From assembly GCF_964204865.1 (NCBI RefSeq), contig NC_135254.1, positions 21,510,199 to 21,525,456 of the forward strand: 15,258 nt of DNA, read 5' to 3'. Below, piece by piece: positions 797 through 12,700 of the stretch (the stretch's first letter is position 1; the number at the start of each line of letters is the position of its first letter). The notes under the pieces are model-generated. The model searched no databases. It saw only the letters and a list, made by a program, of their open reading frames with translations, and was not told the DNA's origin. This DNA is from Styela clava. Lineage: Eukaryota. The position numbers and the translations under genes were made by a program.

Positions 797-3700
797 GTTA
801 TTTTACTTCATCAAAAATAGTTTGTTTACATTAGTCATTTGATGGACATACTTATACGTTAATTCCTTCTCTACCTTACATGAATTGAGTTGTTTATATT
901 TTGTAAAATGAGTTGCACAATTGTAATCATTTAAGCGGAAGTTATGAAAATAAAAATATATATTTTTTACTATTTACTTTTTGTATCCACAAAATTCAAT
1001 AACATATTACTGTTACCAACAATTATCTATGAATAGATAACTAATATAGCCAAGTATTTTGTTTCATCTTTGTTCTTTCAACTTGAACATCACTTAACCT
1101 GCACATGAAAATATTTATAAATCATATCACATTGCAGCTGTTGTATGGATGGTTATTAAAATTTTTGTCATAGATGGTTCCATAATGGGGAAGAGCTCAC
1201 TGGTGATGAACTTGATATTGACATTGCAAGTAATGGAAGTTTGCTGTTATATTCTGTTGATGGTGATGACAGTGGTTCATACAAATGCGAAGCTGAAAAT
1301 AACCTGGGTAAAGTTGACATCGAAACAAAAATTACGGTCTACGGTAAGATATTTTTATTTCAGTTATTTCAATGATAAAGTAAAAATTTTGTATAGAAGT
1401 GGATTTTTTATATTTATGTCGCCCAATCATATTGCAAACCATTGCTTTTTGTCTCGCTACCGGTTTTATTCCTTTCAAATGCATGAAGTTGAAGTTTGCC
1501 TGAACTGAATGTACTCTCACTACTGTATCATACTAGTTTTGTGTAGACGAATCTCTGAGACCTCTTTAGTGGTTGCCATTAAACAGAAAGGTCTATAATT
1601 AAGTATATATTCATATAAAAATATATTGATCTCATATTTCAAATCAAGTCTAGTTTTGTTATACAAAAATTTGTGGATTGCTTATTATTTTTAAATCATT
1701 ATGAAGTTGGATATTTTTATGACTATATTCTCGACTTTACATAGAAAATATTGATTATGGTAAAACATATTCGAACCTTTTGCAGAACCGCCAGAGATTA
1801 CTGATGCAGGTGACACCACAAGATTATGGGTTTTTGAAGGACAATCTGTATCAATGTTTTGTTATGCAACTGCTGTACCAAAGCCAACAATTACTTGGTA
1901 TAAAGTAGAATCATCAGACAGGGTAGATATTTTTAATGTATCTCATTTATTTCACTTGAATTGTTATAAAAATCATTATTCAAGAATACATTCGGTTCAT
2001 AACAAGGTACAGTCAGTAGATCTTCTCATCTCTTTTATGTTGATTCCCACAATTAATGTTTCAACTTTTTCAAAATCGAAATTGCAAATATAAATATGTA
2101 TTAGGAAAATAAATTTTGCTCATCTAATCTTAATAGCGACCATTATTTTCAAGCATTTTCTGATCTGTCACTCAGAATTTCAGCTCATTTTGTTGCATTG
2201 TTTAGATTCTGAATAATGAAGTAGACCACATCAATATATTGGGAGATGGAGATATCTTAAACATCACCCGAGCAAGAGTATCTGATACAGGAAGATACTA
2301 TTGTGCTGCAGCTAATGTTGAAGGAAAATCATACAAAGTATGAATTTTTATTTTAAATTATTAGTAAAGCAAATAGTCTGCCTTATTCAAACAAAAGCCT
2401 CATTCCTCAAATATGGAAAAATTTATAAAATGATTTGTTAAAATGTTAGTAAGACCTTTCTTGCTTTCTGCAATGTTTTCTATAAGAATCACATTGATTA
2501 ATTTCTTAATAGCTACTCCATAAGCAGTTTAAAAATATACAGATCTTTGCTCTGGTACAATTAGACAAAAATTATTTTATTTTGATTTTTAAAAACTGTG
2601 TTTGTCTATATCAAGATGTGTGTTTTTTAGTTGATGTGTGAATATGATATATTGATGATATTTGCAAATATGAATTAAATAATATAACCTTGCAAATTAT
2701 TTTTGCTCTTCAGTTCTATGAATTAGACGTTTATGTCCTTCCTTCCATTGATGGCAGTGATGAAGTTGACAGGAGTAAAGTTATTCTTGGTAACGATTTT
2801 ACTCTAGAATGTCCTGTCACTGGAATTCCATTTCCAACTATACGGTGGTTCAAAGGTACAGTTTATTTAAAATCTTTTCTAGGAGACAAAAATAACAGAA
2901 TAGTATTGCATACTTGTTACTTATAGATTTTAATCGGTAAGTATGTTGATAGGTATTCGTCTGTCTGTTTGTCTGTTAGATGCACGCGATATCTCACGAA
3001 AGCGAGATTGAATCTGCTCCAGATTTTGCATGTGCATTCATCATATGTCGTACCAGAAGCCTATTGATTTTGGATGAATTATGTCGTATAATTAGCGAGT
3101 TATTAATTAATTAGTGATGGGACACAAGGTGTCACTATGTAGTAAGAGCGCTGTTTTGGGGGATCCCCTAACTTTCAATCGATAAGTCTTCGGTCTCTGA
3201 TCGATATTCTCGTTTTATTTATTCAAGGATTGCATGAAATATCTGTTGAAGATGAAGGAATGTTGATTGATAATCGTGGACAATCTTTGACTGTTCTTAA
3301 CAGTGAACTTGAACATGATGGAGAATACACTTGTGTGGCTGATAATGCTGTTGGTGAAGCTGACAAAGATTTTGATGTTTCAATTCTTGGTAAATGTTTA
3401 TTTCAACAGTTAATAGTATGTTAGACCAATGTCTCGGTCCAAATTGTCAACTTAGTTCGAGTATGGGATGATTTTCATAACTAGTTCCTCATCTCTGATG
3501 AAGGGAATTGGATGATGCAAATATCTGTAATGAATAATTCCGAGAACCAATCTGGGTGGGGAAAAGTCGAGAAACTCTCTTTTACATAATTATCATATAT
3601 GAAATCTTTTGAATTCACATTCAATGGAAAGCACTCTAACCATAAAATAAAAATAAATAAATAGTAATGACAGATTTATAAGGTTTTTTATGTTTTTCTA

Positions 3701-6700
3701 ATTGCAAATCCCTTGACTTAACTTTTGTATTCAACCAGTAGAATCAACTAGAACTAACTTTATTAGATTTTAATTCTTGTGTTTTCATAATTTTGTTAAA
3801 ACGGTTACCGGTACTTACCGGTTAGTAAAATATTTTGTAAAATAGCAGCATATTTCACAGCATATTAATGGAATCTTTCATTAAAATGTAAAGCATTCAA
3901 ATCTATTTTTCAACACTTTTTCTGTATTTTTTAGTTCCACCAACTATTGCTGGTGATGACATGACACACACCATTCAAGTTACAAGATATCTAGCTATTG
4001 AATGCAGGTACTATTTATTTATTGTTGATGAAAACTAACCAATAGAATGAATATACTTTATAGATTTAATAGCCATTACATTCCTCTGATAATCTTTTAT
4101 TTCTGGATCTGTATTTCTTTTGAATGTGTATAAAACCAAAAAATGGTTTATCTGATATTTCGAATAGAAGCTATGAAGCACAATCGCTTTTCTTGGAATT
4201 ATATTCTTGCATCCATTATTTCCTTTTCACAAATTTAAACTTTTTAAGGATGTTTTATGTTCGAGATCTTTCTTGGCAAGACTATACTATAATTACTATA
4301 AGTTCCTTCAACTGGATTTTGCTTTGATGTTAAATGATTTATAATAATAAATGATTGACTGACTGTTATATTTCATATAATCTTCAGGGCATCTGGCATC
4401 CCAAAACCAACACTTTCTTGGTACAAAGATGGACGAACAGTTGCTATCATAAATAACGATCTTGAAGAAGGTCCTCAAACCCTTGACAATGGACGCTATT
4501 TGGAATTTTCAAGAATTCGGGTTGAAGATGAAGGAGTTTATAAATGCGTAGCAACTAATGAAGCTGGATCAGATGATAAAACACACACTGTCAATGTACA
4601 AGGTGACTATAACATCCTGAAACAATAATAATATATCTGATTTCGTATTGAGTTGGTTTAAGAACGGTGCGGAAAATTCTATTCACGTATATGCTATATA
4701 TTGGATATTTTGAAATTTTATGCATTTTATGCATTTAATCGAGGCAAAATTGTGAGCTCCATAGATTAGAATTGGACTCTATCAAACTAAACGATTGATA
4801 CTCTGTGTTTATTTATTTGTATTTGTGCTTTCATATTTATATTTGTTTTGGTTGACGAATCAATAAATCTCTCTCGATCTTTCTCTCTGATTGGTTGATT
4901 TCCTATTAGTCCTAATATTTGTCACATCCCAGATATATTTGTATGAAGTAGTAAACTCAAGATGAAAGAGTAATTATTATTCAAATATTGCATGCAAAAT
5001 AATATAAGTTTGGCAATCAGATGACAGCGACTGTGATGCATGAAAAATATCAAACATGGACTATTTAATCTTGTGTACTGGTTTACAATATCAAACTCAT
5101 TTTCAGTACCTCCAAAGTTTTCTGGTGATGATATACCTGCAAATGTATCAGTGGTTGAAGGAGAAGATATTACTTTGACATGTTATGCCAGTGGAGATCC
5201 ACCACCTACTATAACTTGGCTCAAAAATGGTGTTTTAATCAAAGATGGAGGACGATTCTCTATATCAGATAGTGGAACATTTTTGACAATAAATAGTATG
5301 GATTTATTTTAAAGCAAAAAGGAATTTTGCTGGAAAGCAAAGTTGTAAGAATTAATCAAGACATTAATTTTGCCATTAATTGAGAAAAGAAGAACTTTAA
5401 ATATTGTAAACACGAAAACATATGGATTTCACACTTTTATATTTTATACTATTTTTTGTATTAGATGCTGCACAATCAGACCGAGGACAGTACACATGCA
5501 GAGCGACTAATGATGTGGGTGTTATAACACAGAACCAATTTCTTGATGTGTTGGTTCCACCACGTATAAGTGGCAACAATGAAAATATTGTCATTGAAAA
5601 AGGAGATCCTGTGGCACTTGATTGTGTGATTTCTGGAAATCCAAAACCTAAAATAAGGTTTGTTTTTTTACCAAAATTATATGATTTTCTCTTTCCTTCA
5701 ATTGTTTTTATTATTATATCAAAGAGAAGGTCATTTAATACTGTTATTTAACTGCGAAATTTGGAACGTTGCAAAAAAAAAAATTTAATATTGAATCAAA
5801 GTAATGACCATATTTTGATGTTTCAATTTTTTTAGTTCACATTGTTCTGCTATTCATATCTTATTGGATAACTAAACTTTATGAGTAGATGGCGAGACTT
5901 ATGGTAGTTGACATCAATAAAACGCTTTCGTTTGGGTACACCCGTAGTATGTGTACCAGGTTCGGGTTAGGACCTAATTTTATTCTGATTTTCCTTATTT
6001 TAGTCCTATTAAGAGTTCGGGGTCTGTCTGTGTTATCCAAGTGAATATACCCCTTGCCCATAGGCTTCAGTCCCTTTACACAATTTGATTTAGAGTAGGA
6101 AAACAAAATTAGTTACCTCCATATTGGTACATATACTTCTGGAGCACCCTAGTTTGTCTTTTAAAATCATCTGAAAAACTGAAATGACAGTAATTTCATT
6201 GACTTTTGAAATGCTTGTGGCTACAAATAGAACAAAATGCATGATATCTATGCATCGTTTTTGTATACGGTATATCATTTTGATTATATCAACATTTGCA
6301 GATGGGAAAAAGATGGCCTACCAGTTTTGGCAAATGATCGAATCAGTTTCGATTTTGATAAACAGAGACTAATTATCAGAAATTCAGATGAAACTGATAC
6401 TGCAAATTATACTTGTACTGCCAGTAACATTATTGGATCAGATTCAAAAGGCTTTAAACTTGATGTGCATGGTTGGTATATACTTCAATATTTTTAGATA
6501 TGGAAATTGATATTATATAAGTAATGTCTTCTTCATTACACAAGATTTAATTTCTATGATTCTTTTATAGTTCCACCTGTTGTAAGGCCTTTTGATCAAG
6601 ATGTTTATGAGGTTATTGAAGGAGAGAAAATTCAAATTACATGTGTAGTCAGTGGAATACCTCAACCAATAGTTAGATGGTTAAGAGATGGAAGTGTGAT

Positions 6701-9700
6701 TGCAAGATCAAAATATTTCAAGGTTGGATATTATGTTGTTGGGATTTATTTGAAATTAATTTGGTATGGGATTAGTTAGCCAGTTATTTGTTTTCGGAAG
6801 CATGGACTTGATGGTGGAGGAAGCTGTAACCGACCAGCGGTTACGTGAACCACCCTATGGTGGCGAGGAGTCCAGCATCCTCTCGCACATCATCATTCCT
6901 GCATGGGATTCGAACCTACGAACCCACGAAGGGTAATCAGAGATGCGTTGGCGAGCGAATTTCTAATGCTTAGCACGATGCGCCACACCGCCGAGGATCT
7001 GATAAGTGGAACAAAATTTAATTTTAAAGTTATTCCACACACACAAAGCATATATTTATTAATATTTAATATTAATATTCACTTCTGAGGATAACATGCA
7101 TTTTCATTATATTTTTGTGTTGCAACAAAGCACATAATCATTCTTGATATTCTTTATTTATAAGAGAGCTAGACTAGAAACACTAATAATATTGTGCCGA
7201 TTCGAATGCACCATGAAACTCAATTTTATTGGATATATACCTATTTAATGTTTTATCTAATATAGGCACATAATATGAATAATAGTTCATCTAATGCAAT
7301 TTTCAGCAATTAAGATTTATTTAGTTTGAATTAACAAATAGATTAAAATTTTATACAAATTTCAAAATATGATCATTTTGCTTCCAATAATTTTACCTCC
7401 TTTTAAGACACACTGTATACTTATAATTTACTTATAATTTCTCCCACTCAAACCTAATACTTTTCTGATTTGTTTGATCTACAGTTGAGAGAAGATGGCC
7501 ACACTCTTGTGATACAAAATGCGGATGTTGGTATACATGAAGGTCGATATACTTGTTCTGCTATAAATGATGCTGGAGAAGATGAACAAGATTTAACTGT
7601 TAGTGTATTGAGTGAGTATATAAGAAAATTTGAAATTTATAATTATGCAGATAAATCAGGATATTTCAAAATATTTCTTCATTCTAATTATATTTGTGAA
7701 TGTTTGAGACTGATAACTTCACCTTACACTGGTAATCATTGTACCATTACCCATTAATACGTAGTGCTTATTATTTGTTTACTTGTTTGTGTGGGGGGGG
7801 GGGGCAGTGCTGCTTTCGCGATGGTTCTTTATTGTTCGTAACAAGCTGATGGAAAGACCTGTGAATGTCTATTTATATCACTATATCTTCATTTTGATCA
7901 TATCTGAAACATAAATATGACATAAATATTGGACATTGTAAATAAGGTCATTGTTTTGTCTATGTTAGTGGTCGGCAACCTTTTTTAAGTGACGGACCGG
8001 TAAAGCCTGACGAAAATTTTGGCGGACCACCTTTTATAGAAACGAACTAAGCTTATGCAATAAATTATACGCGTTAAGAAACTTATGTTGACAATATACT
8101 GAAAAAACGAAAGCCGTGCTATTTAATGCGAGATCTGTATTTATTGGCTGGCAATTAACTGTTCCAATATTGGAGATATGGTCGACATCGACACATGTGA
8201 CGTGTTTCATACAGCCTACTTCGATATTTCCTTTTTTGTAGTTATCAATATTGAAAACCAGGCCTCACATTAATAAGATGTTGGGATAAGTAACAATGCC
8301 TGTAAACCTTCTGTCTCTAGTCTGGGTATTGATTGATGTTTGATTGAACATTTGATTTTACTATTGTTTGTTTTGCCATAACTAATTTTGTACCCGATGT
8401 GTTAACTTATGATTATCCTGGTTCCTGAAGTATAGAATTAGCACTGACTGGTCATGACCGGTTAGCTATGAGCAAGTAGTGGAGTAGTCACTAGTCACGT
8501 TCCTAGCGAGAATCATTTTGTTCGAGAGATCTTATTCCGACTGATGTGAGACTTTCTTATATGGGCGTTGAGGGAACAATTGACCCAGCGTCAATGCGAC
8601 ATAATGACATGGGAATTGTTTGTGAAGTCAGACATGCTGCTGAAATGCGTTATGTTTGTCTGGTTTAGTGCTTTTTTGATCGTAGAGTATGTGGTTAGAT
8701 TGTAGAGGCTTCATTAAGGCCTTGTCCGTTTCTGTGTCACCTCTCTGCGGACCGGTAATAACCTTTCCGCGGACCGGCGATGGGCCGCGGCAGGTGGTTG
8801 CCGACCACTGGTCTATGTTATCTGTTATCAGTTGAGTAATCGTACATTTATATCTGCTTGTGTGACGACTCAAAGTCCCTAATTTTTTGATAAGAATGTT
8901 CTAATTATTCCTAAATTCAGAGACTTCCTATGTTTCATATAATAAATTTGGAATGAATTTGATTATTTGATTCGTTTTTGGCCATTCCTGCTTATAGTGC
9001 AGAATTGGCAAACCACTGACTCATGGTGGTAAAATGACCCACTGCATTTTTTCGCTGACTTGTCAAGTCACGAATTAGTGCTGGAATTCCGTTCCAAACT
9101 CTTTTGAAACAATTGAAAAAATTTTGCCATAACATTACATACGTTTTCCGGTAATTCATATGCACACAAATTTGTGTTTTTGTAAATGAATTTCATGAAA
9201 TCGAGTATCAGAAATCACATTTGTATGATATAAGTGCTGCAAGTGTAAACACAATACTAAACAGTATTAACCGAAGATTATATGACTTGCAGAGAAGATG
9301 TAACAAATTTGCTGTATTTGCTTTGATGACGAATAAACTTCAACATTAGTCACCAGTAATACACACACCACTTGAATCTTGTTAGTAGCAAATTTACCAT
9401 TGCATAAATATACAGAGTAACTTAGCAACATTTCCTAAGATACAAAGTACTTCTTGCAAGCATCTTACCTTATCTTGTTCCTTGTATCAATTGATATCTG
9501 ATAATCTTATGTGCTTTGCTGGGGAATGCCATGGGGAATTATTCATTCAATCAAAAATACATATTTCAATAATATTTAACAAAGCATGTCTATTCTAATT
9601 TAATAATTCTTCTTTTCACAAAGTTCCACCATCAATATATGGGCAAGAAAAAACTGTAAACAAAATAGTGAATGAGGGAAATGAAGTTGGATTGGAATGC

Positions 9701-12700
9701 AGAGTGAGAGAAGGAAAACCAAGTCCTATTGTGAGTTAAATATTATGTTTTATATTTGGCAAAAGACAAGGACGCCCAATCTTTTCCACTGAGGGTTGAA
9801 ATGCACATTGATAGACATCTGGGCTTAATGAATCCAATTCAGGGTTATTTTATAAATTTATATCAGTCCCAAATGAATATTGTATGGAAAATCTTATGCA
9901 GTTGTTGTGTTAAACCACACTACAGATAAAAAAAGATGCAGCCGATATTCTGCATGTCTTAGTTTGTACACCCAATAGACAGCTTGTATCCATTCATACA
10001 ACATCAGTTTTCCATGACCACATGATGAATCTATTGCATGGAATAATTTTACTTTTAAGATTCGATGGTATAGGGGAGAAAGTAATGCAATTTCAAAGTT
10101 GAGCACATCATGGGATCATGCACATTTTGATCAAACAATCACAAACCTTCGGGCTAAGGTTGACAATACAGGAGGATATTGGTGTGAAGCGGTTAACACT
10201 GCTGGAAGAGCAAGAAAGAATTTTACTATTGACGTTCAAGGTACTGATTTAAATTGATTTTTTTTTATTCCATTCCCCGTTTCTGTACTTCTTGTGATTG
10301 CATTATGATCGCGATCAATTTTTTGTGCAAATATCCTCTAGTTGATCATAGGTTCAATAAATTGTGAAAAGCCAGAAAAACTACTAAAACATTACTGCAC
10401 AATCAGTTTTGTTACATTCCACTTTTTCTGAATAGTTGAGAGCATGCCAATATCTCAGTTTAATTTATTTTAGTGTATTTGCTTGTCATTTACACATTAT
10501 GAAATTGTTTAATACCTGATTCACAAACAAATTCGCCAATTTTAAATTAGCTTATCTTGTGTTTTCAGTGAAACCTTACATTGATGGAAATGAAAGGGAA
10601 AACAAAAATGTGATATTGGATAATGATGTATCATTTACCTGCAAAGTTAGTGGAGTTCCGAGACCAGAAATTACTTGGACAAAAGATGGAAATCCTATAT
10701 CATATGATCTTAATGACAAATATGGAACAGAAAAAATAGGTGTGTTGTATTAACAAATTCAAATTTAAGGGTAGCCTACATTTGGATGAAAGGGAAATAG
10801 GCACTCGGTCACAATTACTGATTAGAAGATTGCTGGTGTGAATATAATAAAGTTTTATTTTCAGGAACCAGCAATGATTTGTAATAGAAATTTCAATACA
10901 GTAAATCGGCAAAAATATCTTGATAATTTTTATAAATGACTTGATATTAAAATAATTGTCGTCATTCATGATAAGGTATTGGAACCTACATACTGACTGT
11001 AAATGATGCACAAGATGATGACAAAGGAAGGTATACATGCATAGCAACAAATGATGCTGGACAAGATTCTAAAGACTTTGATCTAGATGTTTATTGTAAG
11101 TTGTTACACTTCAAATGCATCGGTTTTGCCAAGATGCTTAATAATAACATTTCTATCTAATGAATTCCAGTGCCACCAACACATGGTGGTGATGGCATTT
11201 TCAATATCACTGTTCTTGAAAACAATGATGCAGAATTATTTTGTGATGTCGAAGCTTTTCCCAAACCAACAATCAGATGGTATAAAGATGGACAGCCAGT
11301 TATATTACCAAGAGAAGTGTTGGATAGCTTGGAAGATTACAGAATTTTACCAATAAAAAAGGCTCAAGTAACAAAATTTATTTAAATTCAATTTGATATG
11401 ATGTTGCATACTATTACTTTAATAAATAAAGTACACACATAGACTGATACTTTCAAAGGTTGTTAGAATTTTATTCCTCTTCATGATGAGTAACCTTTAG
11501 CATCAATGACAAACTGCATGGTAACAAGCATTTGGAATAGGGCAGACTCACAGTTGTTTTGAGGTTCCGAAAAGTTAGAAGATAGGAGAGAATTTGCTTG
11601 ACGTCTTGCTGTTTTACATACCAGTTGATTGGCTACAGCTTTTTTAGTCAATCAAGCCTATACAAGCAATTGAAGGATTCACTGATCTCATAACAAGCCT
11701 GAACCGTAACCGATCAAGAATGCTTTGTCATATGCCTAAACCAATTCAAGTTTCATCTCATCATTTCCCTGGGATTAAAATTACAATCCTGTTCAATTCT
11801 CACCAGTGTTATATTTGGGATAGCTATTATCCGATGTACGTGTATTGACCTCCATGCTGGTCACTAAAATCAACCTTGGTATAATTTCTATACTTGAAAT
11901 TATAATAATGTAAGTTTAATAATGTCATAAGTTTCCAAAACTTTATTACTGGGTTTGGCAGATTTCTGATGCTGGACTATACAAATGTGAAGCAGAAAAT
12001 GTTGCTGGAATAACTGAGAAAAACTTCAGATTGAACGTTCATTCAAAACCCAAAGTTTTTGGACCTACAGTCGATGACATAACGAAATGTAATTTTGTTT
12101 TCTTTGAGCAAATTATGTATGAAGATAAACAAATAAACCTAGGTTTAGTCATTTAGGGATTAACTAAAATATACCTAAATTAATTAAATAAGAACAGAAA
12201 ATTTTTATTTGGGTTACTATTCTTATCTACAAACCTGGATATTGAAGACTAGTATAATGAGTAGCAACTATCTTTAACTTGATGAATTATTTTACTCTTA
12301 TTTGTCATTTTTAAAATCAACATCATATTTTGGACATTGTGATTAATCTTTCCACGATAATTAACATTATTAATTCAATTCAATTCATTTGTTAGTGGTT
12401 GGTGATAGAATTGATATGGTTTGTGATATCCGTGGTGTACCTGCACCTACTTTATCATGGACTAAGAATGGACAACCTTTAGTTATTGACGAATCCGAAA
12501 TGACTCTATTATCTGGATCAAAGATTTTGCGTATTTTTGCAGCTGAGGTATAAATTTAAATGTTCACCATTTGTTTTATTTAATGATTTCACATTTATAC
12601 TTGATTTGAATTTTTGTTTATTTGAGTAGTATAGTTGATTAATAGCGATGTTAGTAGAGCTTGTAAAAGCTTGCCTGAAAATATCTATCTCTGGTTATAC

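Follow-up and report, generated by a model that had tools for sequence, protein, structure and literature searches.

A hemicentin-like gene with an intronic insert, probably a Buster-type hAT transposon with an internal deletion

An 845-bp insert at positions 7966-8810 of the window, the 15,258-bp stretch of DNA analysed here, is very probably a Buster-family (Charlie-like) hAT transposon that has lost internal sequence and is non-autonomous. The insert occupies part of an intron in a hemicentin-like gene, in antisense orientation. We establish here its anatomy, the homology of both of its ends and of a coding remnant in its interior, and its family membership.

Termini and target-site duplication

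The limits of the insert can be read straight off the sequence. It is bounded by 15-bp terminal inverted repeats (TIRs) that pair at 14 of 15 positions (TAGTG.../...CACTG), and a repeat search returned the perfect 14-nt arms at 7967-7980 and 8796-8809. The left TIR (End A; 7966-7980, plus strand, TAGTGGTCGGCAACC) can be aligned to End A of related elements at their termini and represents the transposon 3' end relative to the transposase, and the right TIR (End B; 8796-8810, minus strand, GGTTGCCGACCACTG, reverse complement CAGTGGTCGGCAACC) is the transposon 5' end. Adjoining the two termini without a gap are exact 8-bp copies of GTCTATGT, one at 7958-7965 and the other at 8811-8818, so the near-perfect 15-bp TIRs and abutting 8-bp duplication described in an earlier note on this DNA are both present.

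The TA that follows each copy of GTCTATGT is also identical, which extends the direct repeat to 10 nt, and the same note had offered a 10-bp duplication with 13-bp TIRs as an alternative. We rejected this reading: the TG at 8809-8810 of the right end would stay unexplained, and all relatives recovered with two ends consistently have 8 bp beside a CAG/TAG terminus.

Elements of the hAT superfamily are characterized by 8-bp duplications, short TIRs (5-27 bp) and a terminal YARNG (PMC3014272, PMC3517528), and the target consensus of Buster elements is 5'-nnnTAnnn-3' (PMC3517528). The GTCTATGT pair provides an 8-bp duplication, as found in the relatives; the element termini read TAGTG and CAGTG on TIRs of 15 bp; and GTCTATGT, whose fourth and fifth letters are T and A, fits both nnnTAnnn and the nTyTArAn pattern at related termini.

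Could such an arrangement arise from chance inverted and direct repeats in an AT-rich intron, with no mobile element involved? Short inverted repeats are indeed common in the window, with six further perfect 14-nt ones within 3 kb; however, all six are AT-only or AT-rich low-complexity sequence, and the 14-mer TIR arm itself has no further occurrence in the window with up to three mismatches. A perfect 14-nt inverted repeat (<3 kb) combined with a flanking 8-bp direct repeat was seen in 0 of 200 dinucleotide-preserving shuffled windows. Moreover, chance cannot produce the homologies described below, which link the insert to the ends of transposons and to a transposase, and we regard this explanation as refuted, with a negligible probability.

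Related elements and the two unlike ends

A metagenome scan combining the TIR with a subterminal motif uncovered a single family on host-derived contigs, represented by at least 58 distinct termini. The flanks of 58 related termini give the logo nTyTArAn, with the central T in 56 and the A in 55 of them, and in eight full-length related copies, 369-4,326 bp long, the 8-bp duplication is perfect and always of the form nnnTAnnn. One further copy (L121) has the correct ends and flanks that do not match, and was left out of the target-site duplication evidence. When viral contigs were scanned for the family terminus, the four matches obtained were all GC-rich chance occurrences.

Near-intact autonomous relatives are 2.4-2.7 kb long, with 8-bp duplications that fit nnnTAnnn and transposases of about 620 aa whose annotations (SCAND3-like, ZBED5 or FAM200) put them in the Buster/Charlie clade. 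Elements of this type, with the same architecture at their ends, include L122 (3879-6453 of its contig; 2,575 bp, duplication ACCTAGTG, ORFs of 182 and 439 aa), L123 (4290-6854; 2,565 bp, a 573-aa ORF), a spider element (L128, 2380-5079; duplication TCGTAAAG, 620 aa) and a fish element (L129, 2792-5231; duplication TGTTAGGG, 622 aa). The spider, fish and snake transposases are mutually 86-90% identical. The TIR core of the window element is GGTCGGCAACC, against GGTCCCCAACC in the spider and fish elements, and an identical TIR (CAGTGGTCGGCAACC) is present in a family from metagenome and ENA contigs (JGI24158J21664, JGI24021J15306, JGI24022J15233, JGI24159J19872 and Ga0210059; ERZ25067582 and ERZ22157276; L121, L122 and L123). 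This family has the End A/End B architecture in common with the window element. Over its first 64-65 bp, End B is 81.5% identical between the element and L122, and colinearity of the two extends over 365 bp at the 3' end. However, the family comes from a different host genome: the rest of the window has no match there, GC content is 38-41% compared with 32% in the window, the subterminal regions are just 63-73% identical to those of the window, and the interior at 8327-8745 is not shared.

The related family has two unlike ends, and each of the ~65-70-bp ends of the window element is homologous to a different one. With the TIRs excluded, the left subterminal region is homologous to End A of the relatives and the right one to End B (scores reached in 0 of 2000 shuffles in each case), whereas the cross-comparisons (left against End B, right against End A) showed similarity at chance level. 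The ends of the element are asymmetric, not mirror images of each other.

The End A subterminal region (7981-8040, plus strand) contains a T-run, CGGACCGGT (7993-8001) and CGGACC (8023-8028), and that of End B (8746-8795, minus strand) contains CGGACCGGTAA (8748-8758), CGGACCGG (8770-8777) and CCGCGG; both are presumed transposase-binding regions. The motif GGACCGG occurs three times in the window (7994, 8749 and 8771), every time within the element, where chance would give 0.12 occurrences per window and three or more copies were found in 0 of 200 shuffles. These subterminal repeats, reported in the earlier note, are present and are conserved in relatives, but they do not have the same inward orientation at both ends: read inward from the termini, the motif is GGACCGG on the left and CCGGTCC on the right. 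As the note suggested, the GGACCGG motifs are plausible candidate transposase-binding sites, because they lie in blocks that all relatives conserve. It is known that the TIRs of Buster elements are insufficient for transposition by themselves and that subterminal sequence is also required (PMC12637253).

A transposase remnant and the family assignment

The interior of the element retains the decayed C-terminus of a transposase gene on the minus strand (8123-8326), corresponding to the last 68 codons, with four in-frame stops and the original TAA at 8123-8125. Compared by tblastn with Buster-type transposases, the segment running from 8326 down to 8126 is 42-46% identical (E about 1e-10) up to the C-terminal ...SH, and contains the hAT C-terminal motif LLPxPTSYxCEAxFS. 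This remnant, together with the transposases of the relatives, shows descent from an element that encodes a hAT transposase, an enzyme with an RNase-H-like DDE core and a hAT C-terminal dimerisation region; the catalytic core is gone from the window copy.

In the reverse-complemented element, positions 1-64 match End B and positions 481-844 are colinear with positions 2231-2574 of L122 (60% identity, E 8e-16), so that the last 365 bp of the element follow the 3' end of autonomous elements. The remaining interior (8327-8745, 419 bp, minus strand) sits where autonomous elements have a lineage-specific 5' leader; it has no significant protein similarity (tblastn with 120 transposases) and no significant DNA similarity, and the 5' leaders of the autonomous relatives are not alignable with one another either. 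The longest ORFs in the element (58 and 81 aa) have no homologues, and six-frame open segments of at least 28 aa, concatenated, found no match in a collection of 5.8 billion proteins. An origin by a single deletion is plausible. With an identity to known transposases of only 42-46% in the remnant, and to the nearest family of only 63-73% in the ends, the true parent lineage is unsampled.

The earlier note had classified the insert as a MITE. As an element of the hAT superfamily that is non-autonomous, it withstands scrutiny, given the 8-bp duplication, the YARNG termini and the subterminal motifs kept in relatives. As a sequence-anonymous MITE it does not, for the C-terminus of the transposase is kept as a pseudogene and the 3' part is colinear with autonomous elements; on these sequence comparisons it would be best described as an internal-deletion derivative. 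We nevertheless give roughly even weight to its being a true MITE, that is, a short, coding-free, high-copy element that has amplified recently in its host genome, where an autonomous hAT element elsewhere would mobilise it. Consistent with this, it has no intact ORF, its only coding trace is the pseudogene with its four stops, its TIRs and duplication are intact, and its length of 845 bp falls within the usual MITE size, at the upper edge. The CpG observed/expected ratio, 0.89 in the element interior and 0.53 in the rest of the intron, also fits a limited residence in a CpG-depleting genome, and homologous families are multi-copy in other hosts, with short members of 369 and 472 bp alongside autonomous members. 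In contrast, a BLAST comparison of the element with the remainder of the 15-kb window gave chance matches only and hence no second copy, and the transposase remnant and 3' colinearity are more in keeping with a deletion derivative than with an anonymous MITE of the classical kind. The four stops among the 68 codons further imply that, even should this particular insertion be young, the non-autonomous lineage behind it is not.

Target-site duplications of 8 bp occur outside hAT too, and the element could in principle belong to another superfamily (P, Mutator/MULE or Merlin), its hAT-like termini being coincidental. We consider this very improbable and effectively refuted by the YARNG termini, by the homology of both subterminal regions to hAT/Buster-encoding elements, by the LLPxPTSYxCEAxFS-containing remnant in the interior and by a target that fits nnnTAnnn (PMC3517528).

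Within hAT, sequence similarity places the element in the Buster family (Charlie-like). The best transposase matches are all SCAND3-like, ZBED5, FAM200 or ZMYM6, the placement within Buster being made by best matches, and homologues of the transposase remnants in the long related copies carry the same annotations. Homologues of the relatives' transposases contain PF14291, PF27073 and PF27046, and some also PF05699; the domain assignment rests on full-length homologues found by homology search, as a Pfam scan of the relatives' transposase fragments, single and concatenated, gave no match even at E <= 10.

In common with the Buster family (TcBuster, AeBuster, SPIN and AnBuster, and the domesticated SCAND3/ZBED9, ZBED5, FAM200A/B, ZMYM6 and GTF2IRD2), the element has an nnnTAnnn 8-bp duplication, 15-bp YAGNG TIRs, two subterminal regions unlike each other and a C-terminal remnant homologous to SCAND3-like and ZBED5-like proteins. 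The hAT part of SCAND3 descends from Charlie10, of the Spin/Buster group (PMC3575427). Buster elements are 2.5-3.0 kb long, with transposases of 597-677 aa and TIRs of 14-16 bp, an architecture that the autonomous relatives fit with their 2.4-2.7 kb and ~620 aa (PMC12637253), whereas the window copy is short of about 1.7 kb of coding sequence and unable to move alone. It also resembles Mar, a hAT/Buster MITE of Drosophila willistoni (PMC3517528), which is likewise short and non-autonomous (610 bp against 845 bp), has CAG(G/A)GG-type TIRs and nnnTAnnn 8-bp duplications, and owes its Buster assignment to a full-length relative, as is the case here. However, the two are unrelated past the terminal CAGNGG, and for Mar copy number and distribution are documented.

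Full-text literature searches for the terminal sequences returned unrelated primers only. Among the mammalian Charlie-type non-autonomous hAT elements, MER30, whose consensus we take to have CAGGGGTCCCCAACC termini, a T-rich end followed by GGACCGGT and another end resembling CCCGGGCCGCGGACCGGTACCGGTCCGTGG, presumably shares the architecture of the spider and fish element ends seen here; this likeness is offered as a lead only. Pattern scans of viral and genome contigs gave no match to the MER30 terminus assumed here.

Origin, host context and significance

We propose that an autonomous parent of about 2.5 kb would have lost nearly all of its transposase gene. Both ends would have been kept, the 5' end together with a leader-like segment and the 3' end together with the 3' UTR, as would the final ~70 codons, now a pseudogene. 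An autonomous relative may have supplied, in trans, a Buster-type transposase that bound the 15-bp TIRs and the ~50-bp subterminal GGACCGG/CCGGTCC blocks at the unlike ends, excised the element from a donor site and inserted it at a GTCTATGT target, where repair of an 8-bp staggered cut would have created the flanking duplication. A fairly recent insertion is weakly favoured: the duplication is intact and CpG is undepleted, but the transposase remnant is heavily decayed.

The host intron (7612-9623, plus strand) is 2,012 bp long, with a GTGAGT donor and an AG acceptor; a tRNA scan of the whole window found nothing. The earlier note put the share of the element at about 40%, in agreement with the 42% obtained here. 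The host gene is hemicentin-like and built of Ig I-set repeats, its exons being 33-39% identical to their best protein matches, and the element, whose own sense strand is the minus strand, lies antisense to it. Such a location inside a gene, with so large a share of the intron, raises the question of co-option by the host, for instance in regulation from within the intron or through splice sites or antisense transcripts that affect the hemicentin-like gene; binding of host factors to the CpG-rich ends is conceivable in principle. Yet nothing points to constraint or expression, the interior is decayed, an Rfam scan of the window found nothing, and antisense sites within introns are where transposons usually persist without effect; we therefore judge co-option distinctly unlikely. 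The element encodes nothing and is ordinary transposon biology, with no sign that it serves the host and no demonstrated host function, and a role as a source of cryptic splice sites, raised in the earlier note, is speculation.

In genome annotation, the 845 bp call for masking as non-autonomous hAT-Buster DNA, lest they be taken for gene or regulatory sequence. The exact ends and duplication provide a clean marker for presence/absence genotyping. Alignment with the autonomous spider, fish and other relatives singles out a few invariant subterminal positions at each end, which are candidate transposase-binding sites for Buster-type vectors. A tentative possibility, and one that we hold to be rather doubtful, is that this copy stems from a still-active, horizontally spreading Buster lineage, whose ~65-bp unlike ends are conserved from fish and spiders to an AT-rich invertebrate. 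If so, the intact ends, perfect duplication and undepleted CpG would mark a recent arrival that may still be mobilisable, and the conserved blocks would represent the minimal cis-requirements of the whole clade.

Termini and the two unlike ends

The element (845 bp, window positions 7966-8810) reads TAGTGGTCGGCAACC at its left terminus (7966-7980, plus strand), the transposon 3' end or End A, and GGTTGCCGACCACTG (reverse complement CAGTGGTCGGCAACC) at its right terminus (8796-8810, minus strand), the 5' end or End B. These terminal inverted repeats (TIRs) pair at 14 of 15 positions, the sole mismatch being the outermost base (T vs C), and both are directly abutted by the target-site duplication GTCTATGT (7958-7965 and 8811-8818); direct reading bore out the TIRs and duplication described for 7958-8818 in the earlier note. 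A repeat search of the window recovered the perfect 14-nt arms, whose sequence had no further occurrence in the window at up to three mismatches; the six other perfect 14-mer inverted repeats of the real window were all AT-only low-complexity sequence. A perfect 14-nt inverted repeat (≤3 kb) with a flanking 8-bp direct repeat was obtained in 0 of 200 dinucleotide-preserving shuffles. Structurally, hAT elements are recognised by an 8-bp duplication together with YARNG termini (PMC3014272), and the nnnTAnnn target is a signature of the Buster family (PMC3517528).

A scan of metagenome contigs with the pattern AGTGGTCGGCAACC-N(5-35)-CSGRYCSG matched at least 120 loci, those rich in GC being chance occurrences in bacterial DNA and not relatives. 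Among the matches listed, about 75 came from five samples (JGI24158J21664, JGI24021J15306, JGI24022J15233, JGI24159J19872 and Ga0210059) and had in common one terminus, CAGTGGTCGGCAACCACCGGGCCGCGGCCCGGTGCCGGTCCGTGAGGAGTTCGTTACCGGGCCG..., closely similar to the right end in the window when the latter is reverse-complemented. The similarity of these contigs (GC 38-41%) to the window was confined to 8746-8815, and they thus derive from a different host genome. At least eight complete copies (369-4,326 bp) were present, all with a perfect 8-bp duplication and TA at positions 4-5 in each. The flank logo of at least 58 non-redundant termini among the matches listed was nTyTArAn (central T in 56/58, A in 55/58), and the duplication in the window agrees with its invariant centre and left half. 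Two copies above 4 kb (L044 4861-8958 and L072 1351-5676) had no long transposase ORF, and their coding content had no match in a Pfam scan; a 148-aa ORF of L044, unrelated to hAT protein, possibly comes from a nested insertion.

One end of the complete copies was of the type CAGGGGTCGGCAACC-TTTTTT-GCACTGCGGACCGGTTT...TTTTCGCGGACCGG (End A) and the opposite end was of the CAGTGGTCGGCAACCACCGGGCCGCGGCCCGGTGCCGGTCCGTGAGGAGTTCGTTACCGGGCCG... type (End B). The left end in the window aligned with End A and the right end with End B, each scoring above 2,000 of 2,000 shuffles after exclusion of the 15-bp TIR; under the same exclusion, the left end against End B and the right end against End A were at chance level. 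Invariant or near-invariant blocks were CGGACCGGT and CGGACC at End A, and CCGGTCCG and CCGGNCCG at End B. GGACCGG, which had been proposed as a possible transposase-binding site, occurs three times in the window, always within the element (0.12 expected), coincides with these blocks, and lies in opposite orientations at the two ends when read inward from the terminus. The human element MER30 may have a similar end architecture.

Family assignment and autonomous relatives

The longer metagenome copies contained decayed coding fragments, whose concatenated reconstruction gave 489 protein matches at E ≤ 1e-5, annotated as SCAN domain-containing protein 3-like, ZBED5, FAM200A/B, ZMYM6 or 'HAT C-terminal dimerisation domain-containing protein' and bearing PF14291, PF27073, PF27046 and, on some, PF05699. 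A local Pfam-A scan of the fragments returned nothing, even at E ≤ 10, whereas precomputed annotations of their full-length homologues gave PF27046, PF27073 and PF14291, a discrepancy that reflects either excessive decay of the fragments or a difference between library copies. The C-terminal part of SCAND3 derives from Charlie10, a Spin/Buster hAT (PMC3575427).

DNA retrieved around four matched proteins yielded elements of autonomous type whose ends have the same architecture: L122 (3879-6453, 2,575 bp, duplication ACCTAGTG, ORFs of 182 and 439 aa), L123 (4290-6854, 2,565 bp, 573-aa ORF, duplication ATTTATGc/ATTTATGg with two extra bases on one side), L128 of the spider Parasteatoda tepidariorum (2380-5079, 2,700 bp, TCGTAAAG, 620 aa) and L129 of the fish Sebastes fasciatus (2792-5231, 2,440 bp, TGTTAGGG, 622 aa). 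Their transposases read from End B to End A, and their dimensions agree with those of published Buster elements (2.5-3.0 kb, 597-677 aa, 14-16-bp TIRs; PMC12637253). The hAT assignment of the earlier note thus stands, the ends being homologous to those of elements that encode hAT transposases, and on the best protein matches of these relatives we place the element in the Buster clade.

The L122 and L123 copies lie in transposon-dense DNA: the former is adjoined (7003-9722 and 10468-11320) by the pol of an LTR retrotransposon, with RVT_1, RNase H and rve, as well as by another hAT transposase gene, and two more partial hAT transposase genes lie upstream of the latter (1-2600). A further copy (L121 5091-7785, 2,695 bp, 550-aa ORF) is correctly terminated by End A and End B and has no recognisable target-site duplication, its flanks differing (CTATTATA vs ATCAGATT); it may be rearranged or recombinant. 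Transposases of the clade from the fishes Sebastes (P0029) and Oreochromis (P0039), the spider Parasteatoda (P0033) and the snake Pituophis (P0036) share 80-90% protein identity, and the DNA of the spider and fish elements L128 and L129 is 87% identical across about 2 kb, a pattern that horizontal transfer of the transposon across phyla would be expected to produce.

A decayed interior

On the minus strand, window positions 8326→8126 matched the last 68 residues of the recovered transposases (tblastn, 42-46% identity, E about 1e-10), including the conserved LLPFPTSYLCEAGFS block and four in-frame stops; the alignment terminates exactly at the transposase C-terminal ...SH, immediately followed by a TAA stop (8123-8125). 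When the reverse-complemented element was aligned with L122 DNA, positions 1-64 corresponded to End B and 481-844 to L122 2231-2574 (60% identity, E 8e-16). Positions 65-480 (window 8327-8745) matched neither the transposases by tblastn nor the autonomous relatives in DNA alignment. Between autonomous elements of different lineages, alignment was itself possible only at the first ~65 bp, in the ORF and at the last ~60-70 bp. The 5' leaders of these elements are specific to each lineage, and 8327-8745 occupies precisely the place expected of such a leader. The most economical history would be a single internal deletion of ~1.7 kb in a parent autonomous element of ~2.5 kb; filler DNA captured in the course of gap repair would be indistinguishable from this single deletion.

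Host intron, age and mobility

The host gene, on the plus strand, encodes Ig I-set repeats, each domain split across two exons, with short, AT-rich introns; its closest homologues in a protein collection search were hemicentin-1/HIM-4 proteins, at only 33-39% identity. The preceding exon stops at 7611, before GTGAGT, and the following one starts at 9624, after AG, delimiting an intron of 2,012 bp (7612-9623), 42% of which is the element. The element is antisense to the gene, the orientation in which transposons within introns are usually tolerated. In the preceding intron, a GC-richer stretch (6770-7000, minus strand, about 40%), whose reverse complement has a B-box-like GGTTCGAATCC (from about 6906-6916) and tRNA-like arms, looks like a candidate tRNA-derived SINE; ARAGORN and Rfam scans reported nothing there.

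By our calculation, the intact 8/8 duplication loosely bounds post-insertion divergence at roughly <0.19 substitutions per site (95% level), or about 0.07 with the 28 TIR sites added. CpG observed/expected, at 0.54 across the whole window, suggests germline gene-body methylation. In the element it is 1.03, or 0.89 for the interior, compared with 0.53 for the remaining intron sequence; GC content is 41% in the element against 32% in the window, and this undepleted CpG points the same way as the divergence bound, towards limited age. The four stops in the coding remnant indicate that the non-autonomous lineage is old and do not date the insertion itself. A 'fairly recent' insertion, as the first reading had it, is plausible, not established.

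The element is a non-autonomous hAT of the well-known Buster/Charlie group, and is mechanistically ordinary. Beyond the anatomy and homologies found here, established hAT biology would have a Buster-type transposase, supplied in trans, recognise the TIRs and subterminal blocks at both ends, excise the element and, by an 8-bp staggered cut, insert it into a target of the form nnnTAnnn; repair of the cut would generate the duplication. Published Buster elements do not transpose from TIRs alone and perform best with end sequences of about 126-240 bp; to judge from the AnBuster data, ends of the length seen here would be marginal (PMC12637253). Having kept about 65-70 conserved bp at either end, the element might therefore still be mobilised, given a cognate transposase.
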